Source: a virus. Taken from it: DNA of 64,000 bases. Of this stretch, positions 1,578 through 22,570 are shown one piece after another. The translations under genes were made by a program, and so were the position numbers. A model generated the notes under the pieces. It searched no databases. It saw only the letters and a program-made list of their open reading frames with translations, and was not told the origin of the DNA. The stretch is from IMG/VR virus record IMGVR_UViG_3300031521_000009, one strand, 5' to 3'. The number at the start of each line of letters is the position of its first letter. Within the stretch, counting starts at the first letter, position 1.

Positions 1578-3614
1578 TTAAGAAGCGAATTTAATATTTT
1601 GATTATTCTCAGATACATATCCACCATATGTGTCCTCTTCTAGTTCTTCTCCTTCTGAATAGGCTGCGAACTCTTGTGTTTCTAATGCACTGGCAACATT
1701 TAATGCACTGGCAATTGTAATATCACAATTATATTTTGGTGACTTTTTGAATTTGGCAAAAGCTTCAATCTGTCGTATATCAAACATCTTATCAATAATG
1801 GCAAAATCATCTTGCTTCATCTTATCTCTCCAAATATTTAAAGCATGTGGTATAAATGATTGTTCTACTCCATAACGTTGTGCAGCCTTACCATCTTGTA
1901 CATATTGACTAATTACCATTTGTGGGCGTTCTTGTAATAGAAACTCACAACCGGCCCGCTTATAATAATCAAAAATCAATACATTGGAATATTCAATCAA
2001 ATTCTCACACTCACCATAGAGATAACAAAGCTTTATTGAATCTTCATAGAACTGATAATTTCCACCTTCATCTTCTGTTGGTCGTTCTGTCACCCGGGCA
2101 ACCCAATGATCAAATGTATGATGTGAATCAATAGCTCCTTTCCAAATAGAACAACTACCCAATGAGAATGATGTTTCACTTTCTACTTTGTCATAGCTGT
2201 CCGTAGCGGCACTATAAAGATTTTTCCATACTTTCCCATAGCCATCAACTTCCGGTGCCTGTATGATAAGGAAACGACCTAATTCAGATGGTACAAGTTC
2301 TACTCCTTTACCCCAATCAAATGGATCAATCCAATTGATTTCTGCATTGTAAGCAATTTGCTGTTCACGATGGGTAAGAAGATATCGTTTTCTATCATTC
2401 AATTTTTGATTAGCCGTTTCTCCAAGAAAACCACCAGTAGCCACCATAAACATTTGTGATAAATAGAGTGGTTTAGCAGTAAGAGCAATGTAACGCTCAG
2501 AAGAATTTTTACTCGATAATTCTTTTTGAATCGAAACAATACTTTCCTCTATCAAACTATTACCATCTTCATCAATAATTTCAAACTCATAAGCTGGAAC
2601 AAAGGCCGCTACCTTACCAGTCGAAGAGATTTCATCTTCTTCCCATATATTATCAAACTCGAGTAAGTCAAACTTAGCCGGATTGTATGCCATTTCCTCT
2701 ACATCAGCAACAGACTCGTCCATATCACCACCAGTACCAATATACATTTGATAACCGGTTTTGTCACCCTCTGCGAGTAGAGATGGTTTGACAAACTCTG
2801 CAGTTTGCTTAAGCGTGTCTTTTTTCCACTTTCCAATTTCTTCATATAATATCCAAAAAGGTGTAAGTCCTGAAACAGCTTGCGTATTATCTTTTGCAGT
2901 AATACAGTAGACTTCACTACCAAAACCGAGCATAAGCGTTCTTTTCTCTCCGGTTTCTTCATTTATTACTTCTTCACGATATGAAGATTTAATATAGTCA
3001 TTTCTATTTGGTGACCTACGTTTGTAGAACTCACTATCTCCTAGCCAATCCAAACCACGAACTACATTACTCATGGTATGCTCAGCATAGTTTCCTTGAC
3101 CGGCAACAATTACATTTTGTGATCCTGGAATAAAAATGAAGTTGTAACCAATATTACTTGCAGCATATTCAGAGAATCCTTTCTGTCTTGACTTAGGAAA
3201 TAACAAATCTTTTGCATTTAAGAACATAAGTTCTATACACATGAATTTGAAATAATCTAATGATGTAAATTTAGGATGGCGTTTATCCTTTCTCTTTACG
3301 TTATCAAGCTTAGCTAAGATTACCCAAAAATTTAAATAGAAATACATTCGCCCGGGAATCCAAATATCATATCCACGCTTTGTAGCATTTGGAACAATAT
3401 ATCCTTTGACACAACGACGATATTGTTCATGCCACCACGCTTGGTAGTCTGGACTATCTTTATTGGGTTGCATTTCATTCTTGTTATAGATAACAGGACT
3501 GAAACGTTTAGTATCTTTGAAATCTCTTGTTAGACACATGTTATCAATGTCCGGAACAAGTGTTCTATCCATTGCTAAAATATCATCTAAATATGTAAGC
3601 TTAATATCAGCCAT
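1578..3614 (-). CDS. terL: Terminase large subunit
   Basis: 678 aa with crAss-type Walker A KSRQKGFS, Walker B ILYEEIG, GTGG coupling motif, and C-terminal RNase H-like nuclease (ATDSYD...NCDITIA). Confidence 0.93.
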   Translation of the reverse strand: MADIKLTYLDDILAMDRTLVPDIDNMCLTRDFKDTKRFSPVIYNKNEMQPNKDSPDYQAWWHEQYRRCVKGYIVPNATKRGYDIWIPGRMYFYLNFWVILAKLDNVKRKDKRHPKFTSLDYFKFMCIELMFLNAKDLLFPKSRQKGFSEYAASNIGYNFIFIPGSQNVIVAGQGNYAEHTMSNVVRGLDWLGDSEFYKRRSPNRNDYIKSSYREEVINEETGEKRTLMLGFGSEVYCITAKDNTQAVSGLTPFWILYEEIGKWKKDTLKQTAEFVKPSLLAEGDKTGYQMYIGTGGDMDESVADVEEMAYNPAKFDLLEFDNIWEEDEISSTGKVAAFVPAYEFEIIDEDGNSLIEESIVSIQKELSSKNSSERYIALTAKPLYLSQMFMVATGGFLGETANQKLNDRKRYLLTHREQQIAYNAEINWIDPFDWGKGVELVPSELGRFLIIQAPEVDGYGKVWKNLYSAATDSYDKVESETSFSLGSCSIWKGAIDSHHTFDHWVARVTERPTEDEGGNYQFYEDSIKLCYLYGECENLIEYSNVLIFDYYKRAGCEFLLQERPQMVISQYVQDGKAAQRYGVEQSFIPHALNIWRDKMKQDDFAIIDKMFDIRQIEAFAKFKKSPKYNCDITIASALNVASALETQEFAAYSEGEELEEDTYGGYVSENNQNIKFAS

Positions 3615-3617
3615 AAA

Positions 3618-4259
3618 TTATTTTGCTATAAAATATCCACCTATTGCACCGGCGCCTAAATAAAACCAAATATCATTTTTACTCCACCATCCCGTTGAAC
3701 GTTTTAATGCTCCAATCAAATCTTTTTTTTCTTTTTGAAGAACAAGATTTTCATTTTTGGATTGTTCTGTTTCTTCTACTTGTAGAAAGTATTTTTTAGT
3801 TACATCAGTCAGACTTAATTCGGTACTTGCTAATTTTTTCTCAGTACTTTTTATGATGGTATCTTTCTGCTGCAGAGAAATATTTTTTAGTCCTACAAGA
3901 CTGTCACAATTTGCAAGAGTATGCTTAGTAGTATCGGTATTATAATCATTCTCAAACTTACTTATCTTATTTGTAAGAACTGAATTTTTGTTCTTATAAG
4001 TAGTAATCGTTTTAGTTGATTCTAAGCGATCTTTAGCCCTCAAAGTATTCACACTATCGATAGAGTCTTTTAATTGCTTACGATAAGCGCTAGTTGCTGT
4101 ATTATACCCATTACGATATGCAGATGATAGTTCTTGATTTACAATCAAGTTAGATGCTTGTTTTGATTGACATGATTTAAACCAACCGCCAATAAACAAC
4201 AAAAGCGCGATAGAAATTATCGCACTTATTATCCAGTTTTTCTTTATATATTTTATCAT
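3618..4259 (-). CDS. Putative spanin (N-terminal hydrophobic/lipobox-like segment, coiled coil, C-terminal hydrophobic tail)
   Basis: Hydrophobic N-terminus ending FKSC, heptad-rich middle, C-terminal WFYLGAGAIGGYFIAK. Last gene of the lysis cassette. Confidence 0.55.
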   Translation of the reverse strand: MIKYIKKNWIISAIISIALLLFIGGWFKSCQSKQASNLIVNQELSSAYRNGYNTATSAYRKQLKDSIDSVNTLRAKDRLESTKTITTYKNKNSVLTNKISKFENDYNTDTTKHTLANCDSLVGLKNISLQQKDTIIKSTEKKLASTELSLTDVTKKYFLQVEETEQSKNENLVLQKEKKDLIGALKRSTGWWSKNDIWFYLGAGAIGGYFIAK

Positions 4260-12486: not shown

Positions 12487-12504
12487 TAAATAGTTTTTGC
12501 AAAG

Positions 12505-12536
12505 AAGAGAAGATAGTATTTAAACTATCCTCTCTT
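12505..12536 (-). terminator. Intrinsic terminator after ssb
   Basis: Minus strand AAGAGAGGATAGT-ttaaat-ACTATCTTCTCTT followed by CTTT. Confidence 0.6.
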
Positions 12537-12592
12537 TAATTTACAATAGTGTTTAATTGACTGTTTTATTTTTGCGGGATTACAGTAAACCC

Positions 12593-13024
12593 TTAATTAA
12601 AAGGCAAATCACTTCCCTCACCACTACCAACAGCTAACCCGCCAGTAACAAATGGCCTTTGTCCGCCAGTATTTGCATCAGGATAAACAACAGCACCGGC
12701 TGGTGGTGTCATACTATCATTGCCAGGAACAGACATGCCAGGAACATCTGCCGGAGCATCCGATTTTTGTATAGAAACAACAGTAAGCTCATTGAAATAT
12801 TTATCTTGCCATGGCTTACCTTTTGTTTCAATCTCACAATCAATATGCAATGTAGGATTAGCCAAGAAATACTCATGAATATCAGTAAAGCATTTTACAC
12901 TGAACTCAACATTATCAATCACACTCTTTACAATCCATGTACCAATTATATAAGGACCGTTCTGGCCGGAACCTTCATAATTAGAAAAATTCTTTACCAA
13001 CGCTATTCTTTGTACTACTTTCAT
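12593..13024 (-). CDS. ssb: Single-stranded DNA-binding protein (DUF3127-like OB fold)
   Basis: OB-like N-terminus, GKPWQDKYFNEL, Pro/Gly linker and C-terminal SDLPF. Confidence 0.75.
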   Translation of the reverse strand: MKVVQRIALVKNFSNYEGSGQNGPYIIGTWIVKSVIDNVEFSVKCFTDIHEYFLANPTLHIDCEIETKGKPWQDKYFNELTVVSIQKSDAPADVPGMSVPGNDSMTPPAGAVVYPDANTGGQRPFVTGGLAVGSGEGSDLPFN

Positions 13025-13746
13025 TTCTTTGTTCTCCTTTTTGTTCTATTTTGAAATACCATTCTCTTCTCTTCATTTTCAACTACTATATTCCATTCCC
13101 AACGGTAACGCATTACTTCATAACCATAGTTTACTGACAGAAGCAAATGGAATAGCCTATAAGCTTCGATAGGAACAGAAACAGTACCATGATTCAATAA
13201 AGTAATCAACCACGTAGGAAGCATGTTTGCATTACTTATCTGACGTTCATTTTCAATATCAACATCACTGACAACTAACACAGGTGCATTTTCCGGAGCA
13301 GATAACAAACCACTAATGATTTCTTCTTTTTCAGACAACTGTTTCGTAATCTCCAAATACATTTTCTGTTGAGTAACAAAACCACTTCTATAATTACTTA
13401 CCAATCCCTCTAATCCACCTAGCAACTTACGTAAATGAATCCTACCAAAATAAATCTCCCCACGAGTAATAGAATCAATAAACTCGTCCAATCCCAAAAC
13501 ATCATTCTTATCACCATAAGAAAAACCAAAACTAAATAAATCATTCTTATCCCGATAAACCAAATGGGAATACTCTTTTACAAAAGGAGCCTCAGCAGAA
13601 CTAAATACTCTACCACACTTTTGACAACTATACAAATATCTCTCATTACCACGAGCATCTACTACACTACCATGGAACAATGAACCTCGCGTATCACAAC
13701 GCCTTACTAAGCACTTTAAAAGTGCACCTAATGAACGATTACTCAT
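13021..13746 (-). CDS. Hypothetical protein with N-terminal Zn-ribbon-like motif
   Basis: C..C and CQKCG motifs. TATCTTTG element at 13773-13780 upstream. Confidence 0.6.
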   Translation of the reverse strand: MSNRSLGALLKCLVRRCDTRGSLFHGSVVDARGNERYLYSCQKCGRVFSSAEAPFVKEYSHLVYRDKNDLFSFGFSYGDKNDVLGLDEFIDSITRGEIYFGRIHLRKLLGGLEGLVSNYRSGFVTQQKMYLEITKQLSEKEEIISGLLSAPENAPVLVVSDVDIENERQISNANMLPTWLITLLNHGTVSVPIEAYRLFHLLLSVNYGYEVMRYRWEWNIVVENEEKRMVFQNRTKRRTKK

Positions 13747-13772
13747 AAATTATTCTCTTTAAAATTATACCC

Positions 13773-13780
13773 CAAAGATA
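13773..13780 (-). promoter_or_regulatory. Bacteroidota -7 promoter element at start of late/minus block
   Basis: GTTATCTTTG on the minus strand, about 27 nt upstream of the 13746 ATG. Confidence 0.55.
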
Positions 13781-13995
13781 ACCAATAAATAAACAACTAC
13801 CTAGTAACAATACTATTATAAAATACCATTAACAACATAACCAATCCAACGAAGAACATACCCTACACTACCATATACAATATACAAGCCCACCGTATAC
13901 CCACTACCAAATTACGAAAGCCCTGGATACTCTCTAGTAACTCCCCCCGGTTAGACGATATAAAAAATTAATTACAAATTAAAAACAAAATTATT

Positions 13996-17329: not shown

Positions 17330-17424
17330 TGATTGGAATAGCTTGGATAATTATCTCAATATACTAATGCTGATGTAGAATAATGATAAATAATTATTAG
17401 GTAGCTAACAATTACAAATGGTTC

Positions 17425-17497
17425 GGGAGTGTAGCTCAAAGGTAGAGCACAACATTTTATGTTGAGGGTGATGGTTCGAGTCCATTTGGTCCCACTA
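17425..17497 (+). tRNA. Degenerate tRNA / tRNA-like RNA (5-nt anticodon loop; Lys-TTT-like if the A-U pair opens)
   Basis: GGGAGTG-TA-GCTC AAAGGTA GAGC-A-CAACA TTTTA TGTTG-AGGGT-GATGG TTCGAGT CCATT-TGGTCCC-A-CTA. Confidence 0.7.
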
Positions 17498-18944: not shown

Positions 18945-19130
18945 ATGGAAGAAATAACATTGCATTTACCTCTTAGTAAGGTAATAGAACTTGTTAGACA
19001 AGAGGAAAGAATGATGATTAAGAAATTTTTAGCTACAAATTTAAATCAACAAACTGCTGATTACATTGATCAGTATGTTCCTGTTGAATCAGAAGTATTG
19101 GCTATGTTTACATGTCCGGGCATCGGATGA
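18945..19130 (+). CDS. Hypothetical protein
   Basis: 61 aa, last gene before the terminator. Confidence 0.6.
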   Translation: MEEITLHLPLSKVIELVRQEERMMIKKFLATNLNQQTADYIDQYVPVESEVLAMFTCPGIG

Positions 19131-19147: not shown

Positions 19148-19184
19148 AAAAAGAGTTATGATTAATTTTGTAACTCTTTTTTTT
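19148..19184 (+). terminator. Intrinsic terminator
   Basis: AAAAGAGTTAT-loop-GTAACTCTTTT followed by TTTT. Confidence 0.8.
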
Positions 19185-19207: not shown

Positions 19208-19516
19208 ATGGAAAATGGTAAAGAACCTAGTGCAGATTTAGGTGTAAAAAAAGTACCTGCTAATGAAGCTATTGATGGTGGTGGACAACCTTTAGCAACT
19301 GCTAAATCAGTGTTGAATTATCCACGTAATGAAGAGCTTGTTATTCAATGTGTGATTAATAGTGAAGCCGAAGGATATGCTCTTTTAAGGGCATTACAAA
19401 TCGTTGTGAATACCTTTGGTGCTACTACATGTACTCAGCTTGTTACTAAGCTTGAGAATAGTCCTAAGCTTGCTGATACTGTAAGAAAGTATATTCCTAT
19501 TGTACTAGAAATGTAA
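19208..19516 (+). CDS. Hypothetical protein
   Basis: A-rich leader, 102 aa. Confidence 0.65.
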   Translation: MENGKEPSADLGVKKVPANEAIDGGGQPLATAKSVLNYPRNEELVIQCVINSEAEGYALLRALQIVVNTFGATTCTQLVTKLENSPKLADTVRKYIPIVLEM

Positions 19517-19525
19517 TAATGGTAT

Positions 19526-19634
19526 GATCTAATGGCGGAATTGGTTATACGCATAGTAATTTAAAGAAAAGTCATACGAACTACGGTGTCAGGCTTATAC
19601 ACTATAATTCTCTGTTCGAATCAGAGTTAGATCA
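19526..19634 (+). ncRNA. tRNA-like RNA with 43-nt expansion of the anticodon loop
   Basis: Perfect acceptor GATCTAA/TTAGATC+A, Leu-type D arm GGCGGAATTGGTTATACGC, ATAGT/ACTAT stem around 43 nt, perfect T arm CTCTG TTCGAAT CAGAG. Confidence 0.8.
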
Positions 19635-19658: not shown

Positions 19659-19940
19659 ATGACTGAAACAACTTATGTACCTTTTAGTGATTTACAATCA
19701 CAACCTGAGCAGTTATCAACAATAACTACTATTGAACCTTATAGTCCGGCTAATGCACAAGCGACTACTCAATGTAATCCTGTTCTTACTCATTGTTATG
19801 TATGTGGCAAAGGATGGGGTTATGGCTACTGGAAACATTGTGGATGCAATACAGTGCCAGTTGGTGATGGAACGTTGCTCTTTGCTATGTTTCTGACAGT
19901 TTATGCGCTATTCAAATACTTTAAAAGAAGAAAGATATGA
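19659..19940 (+). CDS. Small protein with PID-CTERM-like sorting signal
   Basis: Ends VPVGDG + TM + KYFKRRKI. Confidence 0.55.
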   Translation: MTETTYVPFSDLQSQPEQLSTITTIEPYSPANAQATTQCNPVLTHCYVCGKGWGYGYWKHCGCNTVPVGDGTLLFAMFLTVYALFKYFKRRKI

Positions 19941-22307: not shown

Positions 22308-22570
22308 TACATTTGCAGTCATGATACAATCAATAATTCATCCCATCACCAGCCAGACGTTTGCATTATGCAGCGACACACAACAACACGTGATTACGGT
22401 TATTATTAGATTTGTTTCGGATATCAATCAAACTTTAAAGAAAGCCTATTGCAAAGCAACACTTGAACTATCTAGTTCGTATGGTTAGATGCAAACAGGT
22501 GTCAGTAAAATAATAGATTGATATAAATTAAACGTCCAGGTACTTTATTGTATCTGGACGTTTTCGTTTC
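22308..22570 (+). promoter_or_regulatory. Promoter + leaderless 55-aa ORF (22321-22488) + terminator (attenuator-like leader)
   Basis: TACATTTG at 22308-22315, ATG 5 nt after it, terminator AAACGTCCAGGTAC/GTATCTGGACGTTT at 22530-22563. Confidence 0.6.

Follow-up and report, generated by a model that had tools for sequence, protein, structure and literature searches.

What is a gene that keeps the acceptor stem, the D arm and the T arm of a transfer RNA and holds 43 nt in the place of the anticodon loop? The question is raised by positions 19526-19634 of a 64,000-nt stretch of viral DNA (IMG/VR record IMGVR_UViG_3300031521_000009; "the window" below means this whole stretch). All of the coordinates and pairings that an initial annotation gave for the element are correct on direct reading (Table 1), with the ATAGT/ACTAT stem enclosing exactly the 43 nt at 19558-19600, and with no encoded CCA, A19634 being directly followed by CAA.

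Table 1. Features of the tRNA-like element, its neighbouring genes and the intron call discussed in the text (positions in the window)
Feature	Positions	Strand	Basis or remark
Upstream 102-aa ORF	19208-19516	+	ends 10 nt before the element; query for orthologous loci
Acceptor stem, 5' strand GATCTAA	19526-19532	+	7/7 Watson-Crick with 19627-19633; R1 alignment
Connector U8, G9	19533-19534	+	direct reading; U8 in 94/94 family members listed
Leu-type D arm GCGGAATTGGTTATACGC	19535-19552	+	3-bp stem GCG/CGC; A14, A15 and G18G19 in loop
Closing stem of insert arm, 5' strand ATAGT	19553-19557	+	pairs with 19601-19605; anticodon-stem position
43-nt insert (cargo)	19558-19600	+	weak hairpin from fold; ARAGORN -i
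Putative intron of the ARAGORN call	19558-19593	+	directly after the anticodon-stem 5' strand
Putative anticodon loop CTTATAC of the ARAGORN call	19594-19600	+	ARAGORN -i
Closing stem of insert arm, 3' strand ACTAT	19601-19605	+	pairs with ATAGT
Variable-loop-like connector AATT, 4 nt	19606-19609	+	last U in the position-48 place
T arm CTCTG-TTCGAAT-CAGAG	19610-19626	+	direct reading; R1 alignment
Acceptor stem, 3' strand TTAGATC, and discriminator A73	19627-19634	+	direct reading
Downstream 93-aa ORF	19659-19940	+	starts 25 nt after the element

The element within its phage genome

The window, with a G+C content of about 33%, is assigned by its sequence to a crAss-like phage. Its large terminase is about 27-28% identical to crAss-like phage terminases, and it also encodes Dda- and DnaB-like helicases, a tail protein and ORFs of 1561 and 4280 aa. 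Neither near and distant DNA searches of a phage collection with the window nor a helicase-based locus search of IMG/VR returned a relative. Scans of the window for sigma-70 promoters and for the Bacteroidota -7 motif TANNTTTG gave no enrichment. Just upstream of the 102-aa gene we observe a terminator-like hairpin (19113-19129) followed by TAATTTTG (19163-19170), a motif that is not enriched in the window; the segment 19113-19170 may be the start of the transcript that carries the tRNA-like element.

Within the element, a U lies at position -1, directly 5' of G1 (G19526), and the middle is 57 nt long. Closing stems of at least 5 bp in a cloverleaf-compatible register arise in 0.7-3.4% of shuffled middles, and a clean 5-bp stem at the anticodon-stem place, accompanied here by a 4-nt variable loop, is rare in the family described below (2 of 97 members). 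The shell is beyond chance. The initial annotation had suggested a covariance-model search across phage genomes, and a model of the shell only (R1), built from 48 IMG/VR look-alikes of uncultured phages with the window sequence excluded, matches the element at 61.2 bits (E = 9e-15).

A weak R1 match at 12505-12618 on the minus strand was rejected as a tRNA-like element, being a spurious match to a terminator hairpin. This intergenic segment (12500-12625, minus strand) contains a 13-bp hairpin with a U-rich tail and a second upstream hairpin (-33.5 kcal/mol, z = -3.6), and is probably a terminator between two minus-strand genes.

The standard finders pass the element over. ARAGORN with standard settings makes a single call in the window, the tRNA-Lys at 17425-17495, and Rfam at gathering thresholds likewise finds only the tRNA at 17425-17495. 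At a loose threshold, the Rfam tRNA model (RF00005) gives the element 13 bits against a 29-bit cut-off, in a partial and misaligned match. The initial annotation had set aside a tmRNA, and both ARAGORN -m and Rfam find none in the element; it had also called the insert too short for a self-splicing intron, and 36-43 nt is indeed below group I size.

The insert had further been described as structured, and here only a part of the description holds. The inner pairings that had been pointed out, AAGTC/GGCTT (19569-19573/19592-19596) and ATAC/GTGT (19574-19577/19586-19589), are the minimum-free-energy fold of the insert, but this fold (-5.7 kcal/mol, z = -1.0) does not go beyond shuffled sequence, with 30 of 200 shuffles folding equally well. 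Structure in the window's own 43 nt is unproven. We found no diverged copy of the insert in IMG/VR, in the metagenome scans or among 135 loci. In the comparison of the 57-nt middle with these 135 loci, blastn-short returned chance 12-13-mers only, and exact 21-24-mers of the insert or its junction had no match in IMG/VR, where the lineage is poorly represented. Two metagenome scans with the insert core and the first 20 nt of the shell returned nothing; the scanned collection evidently does not hold such contigs, because one of the related contigs described below (L124) derives from a JGI sample and yet the scans were empty. As for antisense targets within the window, complementary 10- and 11-mers are no commoner than for shuffled inserts, and the lone complementary 11-mer, at 22473, is within expectation.

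A family of RNAs with a leucine-tRNA shell

A search of IMG/VR for a Leu-type D arm and a T loop lying 50-75 nt apart, which is too distant for a normal tRNA-Leu, returned at least 117 loci. The loci listed have the shape of tRNA genes: the acceptor stem is paired, the D arm is the same, a T arm is present and the middles are unrelated, with 94-98 distinct middles of 46-137 nt among the matches listed. The diagnostic arms of the type are a D arm of the form GCGG-AAUUGGU..-CGC and a T arm with the loop UUCGAAU, both found in the window element. In a set of 94 listed members (50 distinct acceptor stems, 44 perfectly paired), we observe U8 in 94/94, U48 in 93/94, A73 in 77/94 and U at -1 in 74/94, with a trailer that starts with C in most members and reads CAA in 36/94. 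The window element has all of these shell features (U8, U48, A73, U at -1 and the CAA trailer), and its exact D-arm 19-mer recurs in six other IMG/VR phage elements of the same design. None of the 94 listed members is called as a tRNA by standard ARAGORN, and several members of the family reach the Rfam tRNA cut-off, but solely when taken as tRNAs that hold a large insertion. Where phages with such chassis RNAs have decoding tRNA-Leu genes, the shells of the two differ.

Two side observations concern the surroundings and the limits of this family. In IMG/VR phages, GOLLD, tmRNA, freshwater-1 and DUF2693-FD RNAs are found near Leu-frame RNAs (L098:11836-12243, 13561-13958 and 3348-3409; L005:2697-2745; L002:5468-5866), and DUF2693-FD has a tRNA-like fold according to a 2026 preprint on bacterial tRNA mimics. 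At L091:7025-7105, ARAGORN calls a tRNA-Leu(taa) whose acceptor and T arm are those common in the family (AGTCAGG ... ACAGGTTCGAATCCTGTCCTGACTA) and whose D region is not of Leu type; the same outer shell is thus combined with D arms of more than one kind.

In the literature we found no description of an RNA family with a constant frame and an exchangeable insert (chassis and cargo). The mimics treated in the 2026 preprint are other RNAs (skipping-rope, DUF2693-FD and salivarius-1), and tRNA-like candidates come up in general terms only in a 2023 catalogue of structured RNAs from viruses.

Among known RNAs, T5 RNA1 is the closest to the window element. It is recorded as a misc_RNA, "tRNA-like stable RNA with unknown functions" (NC_005859, 30501-30644), and shares with the window element a Leu-type D arm (CCGGAATTGGTAGACGG), a canonical T arm, a paired acceptor and a long non-anticodon middle. 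With R1, both T5 RNA1 (48.2 bits, E = 4e-12) and the window element score above the tRNA-Leu of T5 (34.8 bits, E = 2.4e-8); the canonical tRNAs tested range from 10 to 35 bits, with the tRNA-Lys of T5 at 27.7 bits (E = 2.5e-6) and that of the window at 10 bits (E = 2.9). T5 RNA1 lies in the tRNA gene cluster of a T5-like coliphage, whereas the window element is solitary, flanked by protein genes in a crAss-like phage, and the T5 RNA1 middle is longer and unrelated, whereas that of the window is one short arm with a 5-bp closing stem. The kind is already known as an object (T5 RNA1 type), and the window element is a further member of it.

Other known systems share parts of this design. T4 rnaC (species 1) and rnaD (species 2), small stable RNAs encoded beside phage tRNAs (NC_000866, 70908-71171), have a tRNA-like 3' part with the T arm CCGGG-TTCGAAT-CCCGG; unlike the window element, rnaC has no Leu-type D arm and matches R1 weakly (24.9 bits, E = 1.6e-5), and rnaD does not match it. 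With class II tRNA-Leu (RF00005), the window element has in common the acceptor, a 3-bp D stem with an AAUUGG loop, the T arm, U8, A14, A15, G18G19, U48 and A73. Unlike class II tRNA-Leu, it has neither an anticodon arm with a 7-nt loop nor a separate long variable arm. The upper half of a tRNA as a processing, stability or charging handle on a non-tRNA module is a likeness to tmRNA and to the "tRNA scaffold" RNAs that Ponchon and Dardel reportedly engineered by swapping the anticodon arm for a cargo RNA. Here the differences are that tmRNA has no such D arm, is alanine-specific, and carries an ORF and pseudoknots, and that scaffold RNAs are man-made. Finally, tRNA introns have been reported from the Lak megaphages of Prevotella (Devoto et al. 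2019, PMC6784885). These "enigmatic" introns are also extra sequence in phage tRNA-shaped genes, in Bacteroidota-type hosts, with an unexplained splicing mechanism; in Lak, however, insert-bearing and insert-free alleles can be aligned and a normal tRNA is left, whereas at the window locus no insert-free allele was found, the relatives carrying other inserts or no element.

The orthologous locus in related phages

Contigs with homologues of the two flanking proteins (44-97% identity) show four states of the locus. The exact upstream protein is recorded in 71 collection blocks (24 contigs read), and the sole locus shown among these blocks, on contig L138 from another sample, has an identical copy of the element.

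Two further contigs, L124 and L126, have a left gene that is 85-88% identical to that of the window at the nucleotide level, and the first 20 nt of their element (GATCTAATGGCGGAATTGGT) are the same as in the window, with which they share the acceptor stem and the Leu-type D arm. The acceptor 3' strand of L124 is also that of the window. The T stem is re-paired in both contigs: L124 has CCTGG/CCGGG where the window has CTCTG/CAGAG, with two pairs changed on both sides and a further one to a wobble, and the stem is still paired. The middle of these elements is 172 nt long and unrelated to the window insert. L124 and L126 differ from each other at 14 of 224 positions, with four predicted pairs changed on both sides and the pairing kept, and with two more compatible one-sided changes; because of the four compensatory pairs, we conclude from this comparison that the 172-nt sister insert is under structural selection as RNA. 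The initial annotation had named conservation in homologues, of the insert or of the stems, as decisive, and the two part company here: the shell stems are kept with compensatory changes, and the insert is not kept. What is kept at the orthologous locus, the sequences indicate, is the frame, and the insert is swapped as a whole.

In L126 (3319-3542), the acceptor 3' strand reads TTAGATA in place of TTAGATC, so that the stem ends in a G1.A72 mismatch.

Behind the Leu frame, L124 and L126 carry a second tRNA-like element of another kind. In four other contigs (L128-131), with a left gene that is 93% identical, the Leu frame is absent and there is only a compact (about 70-nt) mini tRNA-like element. 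The mini element (L128:470-543, also in L129-131; L124:3600-3790; L126:3590-3770) occupies the same intergenic spot throughout, alone in L128-131 and, in L124 and L126, after the Leu frame and with an internal insertion. Its acceptor reads AGTCTAT/ATAGACT or, with a G.U pair, GGTCTAT/ATAGATC; the D arm is reduced and lacks GG, the T loop is TTTGATT, and the acceptor stem is compensated between L124 and L126. The remaining state, with no element at the locus, is found in L125 and L132-137. The window-type element is thus dispensable, being absent from these contigs and with another element in its stead in L128-131.

More distant relatives have odd tRNA-shaped elements of their own (L142:1645-1731 and 4163-4242; L127:1937-2017), two of which have no Leu D arm and give weak R1 matches of 24.4 and 14.8 bits, and one of which is called by ARAGORN as "tRNA-???" with a 2-nt anticodon.

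A comparable pattern is observed at the tRNA-Lys locus. The tRNA-Lys(UUU) of the window (17377-17494, plus strand) has a short anticodon arm, with either a 5-bp stem and a 5-nt loop or 4 bp and 7 nt. In the relatives' elements at this locus (L124:1119-1316, L126:1082-1310 and L127:1845-2046), the shell is of class I, with compensation in the acceptor and T stems, and the anticodon regions are quite different, one form having a 12-nt loop and another a 26-nt loop on an 8-bp stem; ARAGORN finds no normal tRNA among them. We interpret the tRNA-Lys locus as a second tRNA-like locus with a constant frame and a variable middle in this phage lineage.

A proposed non-decoding RNA and its alternatives

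The reading that we favour, with moderate confidence, is that the element encodes a processed, stable, non-decoding RNA of tRNA-Leu shape, of the T5 RNA1 type, with an exchangeable arm module. It is suggested by the full upper body, the lack of a usable anticodon arm, the fit to R1 and the exchange of the insert at the locus. The "tRNA mimic" of the initial annotation stands as to its kind, that of a family with a tRNA-Leu shell and no decoding arm, but not as a decoy for anticodon nucleases, since there is no loop to mimic.

Such an RNA would share a transcript with the 102-aa gene that precedes it. Host RNase P would cut before G19526, as G1 and the U at -1 suggest, the 3' end would be trimmed at or just after A19634, and CCA would be added, giving a stable L-shaped RNA of about 109-112 nt whose excision would separate the upstream from the downstream message. 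As there is no anticodon arm, the product would not decode. The shell would provide for processing, stability and docking to tRNA-binding proteins, and the arm at the anticodon position would be a lineage-specific specificity module, exchanged between relatives; that this arm is a functional module is a proposal by analogy with the sister locus and the family.

Leucylation without codon reading is also conceivable. E. coli LeuRS uses A73, A15:U48, G18G19, A20a and D/T-loop contacts, and it still charges variants that have lost the anticodon and variable arms (PMC9976931). The window element keeps A73, an A15:U48-type pair, G18G19, U8:A14 and an intact T loop (A20a cannot be placed, the numbering of the D loop being ambiguous); with most of the LeuRS determinants kept, and the anticodon and variable arms dispensable, leucylation may therefore occur. 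Processing, CCA addition and leucylation are extrapolated here from sequence and from E. coli biochemistry. That the Leu shell has been kept because the host LeuRS charges or docks the RNA, the arm aiming a non-decoding RNA at a lineage-specific partner, is an extension that we regard as unlikely.

The intron-containing tRNA of the initial annotation would be a split decoding tRNA, from which a protein-dependent cut-and-ligate step removes the 36 nt at 19558-19593 to leave a 74-nt tRNA(UAU) with the loop CUUAUAC. It would read AUA, which should be a frequent codon at 33% G+C. Exactly this molecule, a tRNA-Ile(UAU) of 74 nt with a 36-nt intron, is called by ARAGORN at its default threshold when introns are allowed, and C32, U33 and A37 are present in the 7 nt that remain once it is removed. 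The closing stem pairs perfectly and keeps the cloverleaf register, and with this clean 5-bp stem in the anticodon-stem place and the 4-nt variable loop an intron-type reading stays alive; phage tRNA introns, moreover, have been reported for the Lak megaphages (PMC6784885). The call, however, is unstable: with short flanks the same sequence becomes a tRNA-Arg(ACG) with a 17-nt intron, and intron-tRNA calls are also obtained for 211 of 1000 shuffled inserts (21%) in the same shell and for 61 of the 94 listed family members, spread over 21 tRNA types. The intron model needs a mismatched D stem, because the perfect GCG/CGC leaves no nucleotide 26, and in our own comparison with published E. coli IleRS determinants the shell is of Leu rather than Ile type (G12-C23 against U12-A23, A29-U41 against C29-G41, C38 against A38). 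By inspection of the fold, the predicted 3' junction falls within the AAGTC/GGCTT helix, the only helix of the insert, and not in a bulge, and no bulge-helix-bulge motif was seen. There is no Rfam match to an intron or ribozyme, even at a loose threshold, and no RNA ligase or splicing endonuclease is found among 40 ORFs of the window. The 21-mer of the spliced form is absent from IMG/VR, in which the lineage is poorly represented, and the orthologous chassis of L124 and L126 is without any anticodon arm. On balance, we consider a split tRNA at this locus improbable.

A different alternative is that the shell alone matters, as a processing or punctuation signal or as a decaying tRNA-Leu gene kept for RNase P/Z cutting, with the insert as filler. 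An RNase P/Z signal had been proposed in the initial annotation, and it is plausible given the intact shell, the U at -1, the missing CCA and the place between two genes of the same strand, with gaps of 10 nt to the preceding stop codon and 25 nt to the following start; a cut here would part the 102-aa gene from genes for small membrane proteins downstream. For the insert we found neither a significant fold nor a homologue, the element sits where the gene content of the relatives diverges, and a second odd tRNA-like element is found 2 kb upstream (17425-17494). Neutral filler should nevertheless drift by point changes, and the middle is instead replaced wholesale; nor would a signal explain the structured inserts of the relatives, with four compensatory pairs kept between L124 and L126. 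The family also keeps U48 and A73, which goes beyond the needs of RNase P, and by its record T5 RNA1 is a stable RNA that accumulates. A shell-only function is for these reasons rather unlikely in our view. More improbable still would be a role as decoy or sponge, the RNA titrating or distracting, during infection, an elbow- or acceptor-binding host protein such as LeuRS, a tRNA-targeting defence nuclease or a tRNA-modifying enzyme. The RNA has most of the LeuRS determinants of the E. coli type and no decoding arm, the rapid turnover of inserts between relatives resembles an arms race, and phage tRNAs are reported to counter tRNA-cleaving defences (PMC10264068, PMC11464382). On the other hand, this RNA lacks the anticodon loop that known anticodon nucleases recognise, a variable structured insert would be needless in a pure decoy, and no defence or anti-defence gene was identified beside the element.

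Two other decoding readings were tried and rejected. A tRNA-Leu(UAA), with UUUAAAG at 19560-19566, has no contiguous 3' stem strand and would need two separate excisions. An ochre suppressor with the loop AUUUAA+A, the anticodon UUA and the insert at 37/38 would have an A.C mismatch at 31-39, and the long open frames under the standard code do not indicate recoding of UAA.

Phage tRNA genes are usually explained by codon supply and, lately, by escape from tRNA-cleaving defences. A constant, non-decoding leucine-tRNA frame with exchangeable RNA modules, as we propose, would be a third use of the tRNA shape, found here singly in a crAss-like phage and outside any tRNA array. The same frame with a different, structurally selected insert at the orthologous locus is direct evidence of cassette exchange. 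Since T5 RNA1, from a culturable and genetically tractable phage, fits R1, the function of the family is open to experiment. If charging by or docking to LeuRS should prove true, these RNAs would be modular, aminoacylated tRNA-shaped effectors, with cassettes exchanged by recombination at the constant ends of the shell, and could serve counter-defence or the control of host translation; charged or LeuRS-binding, they would form a new class of natural tRNA mimic.
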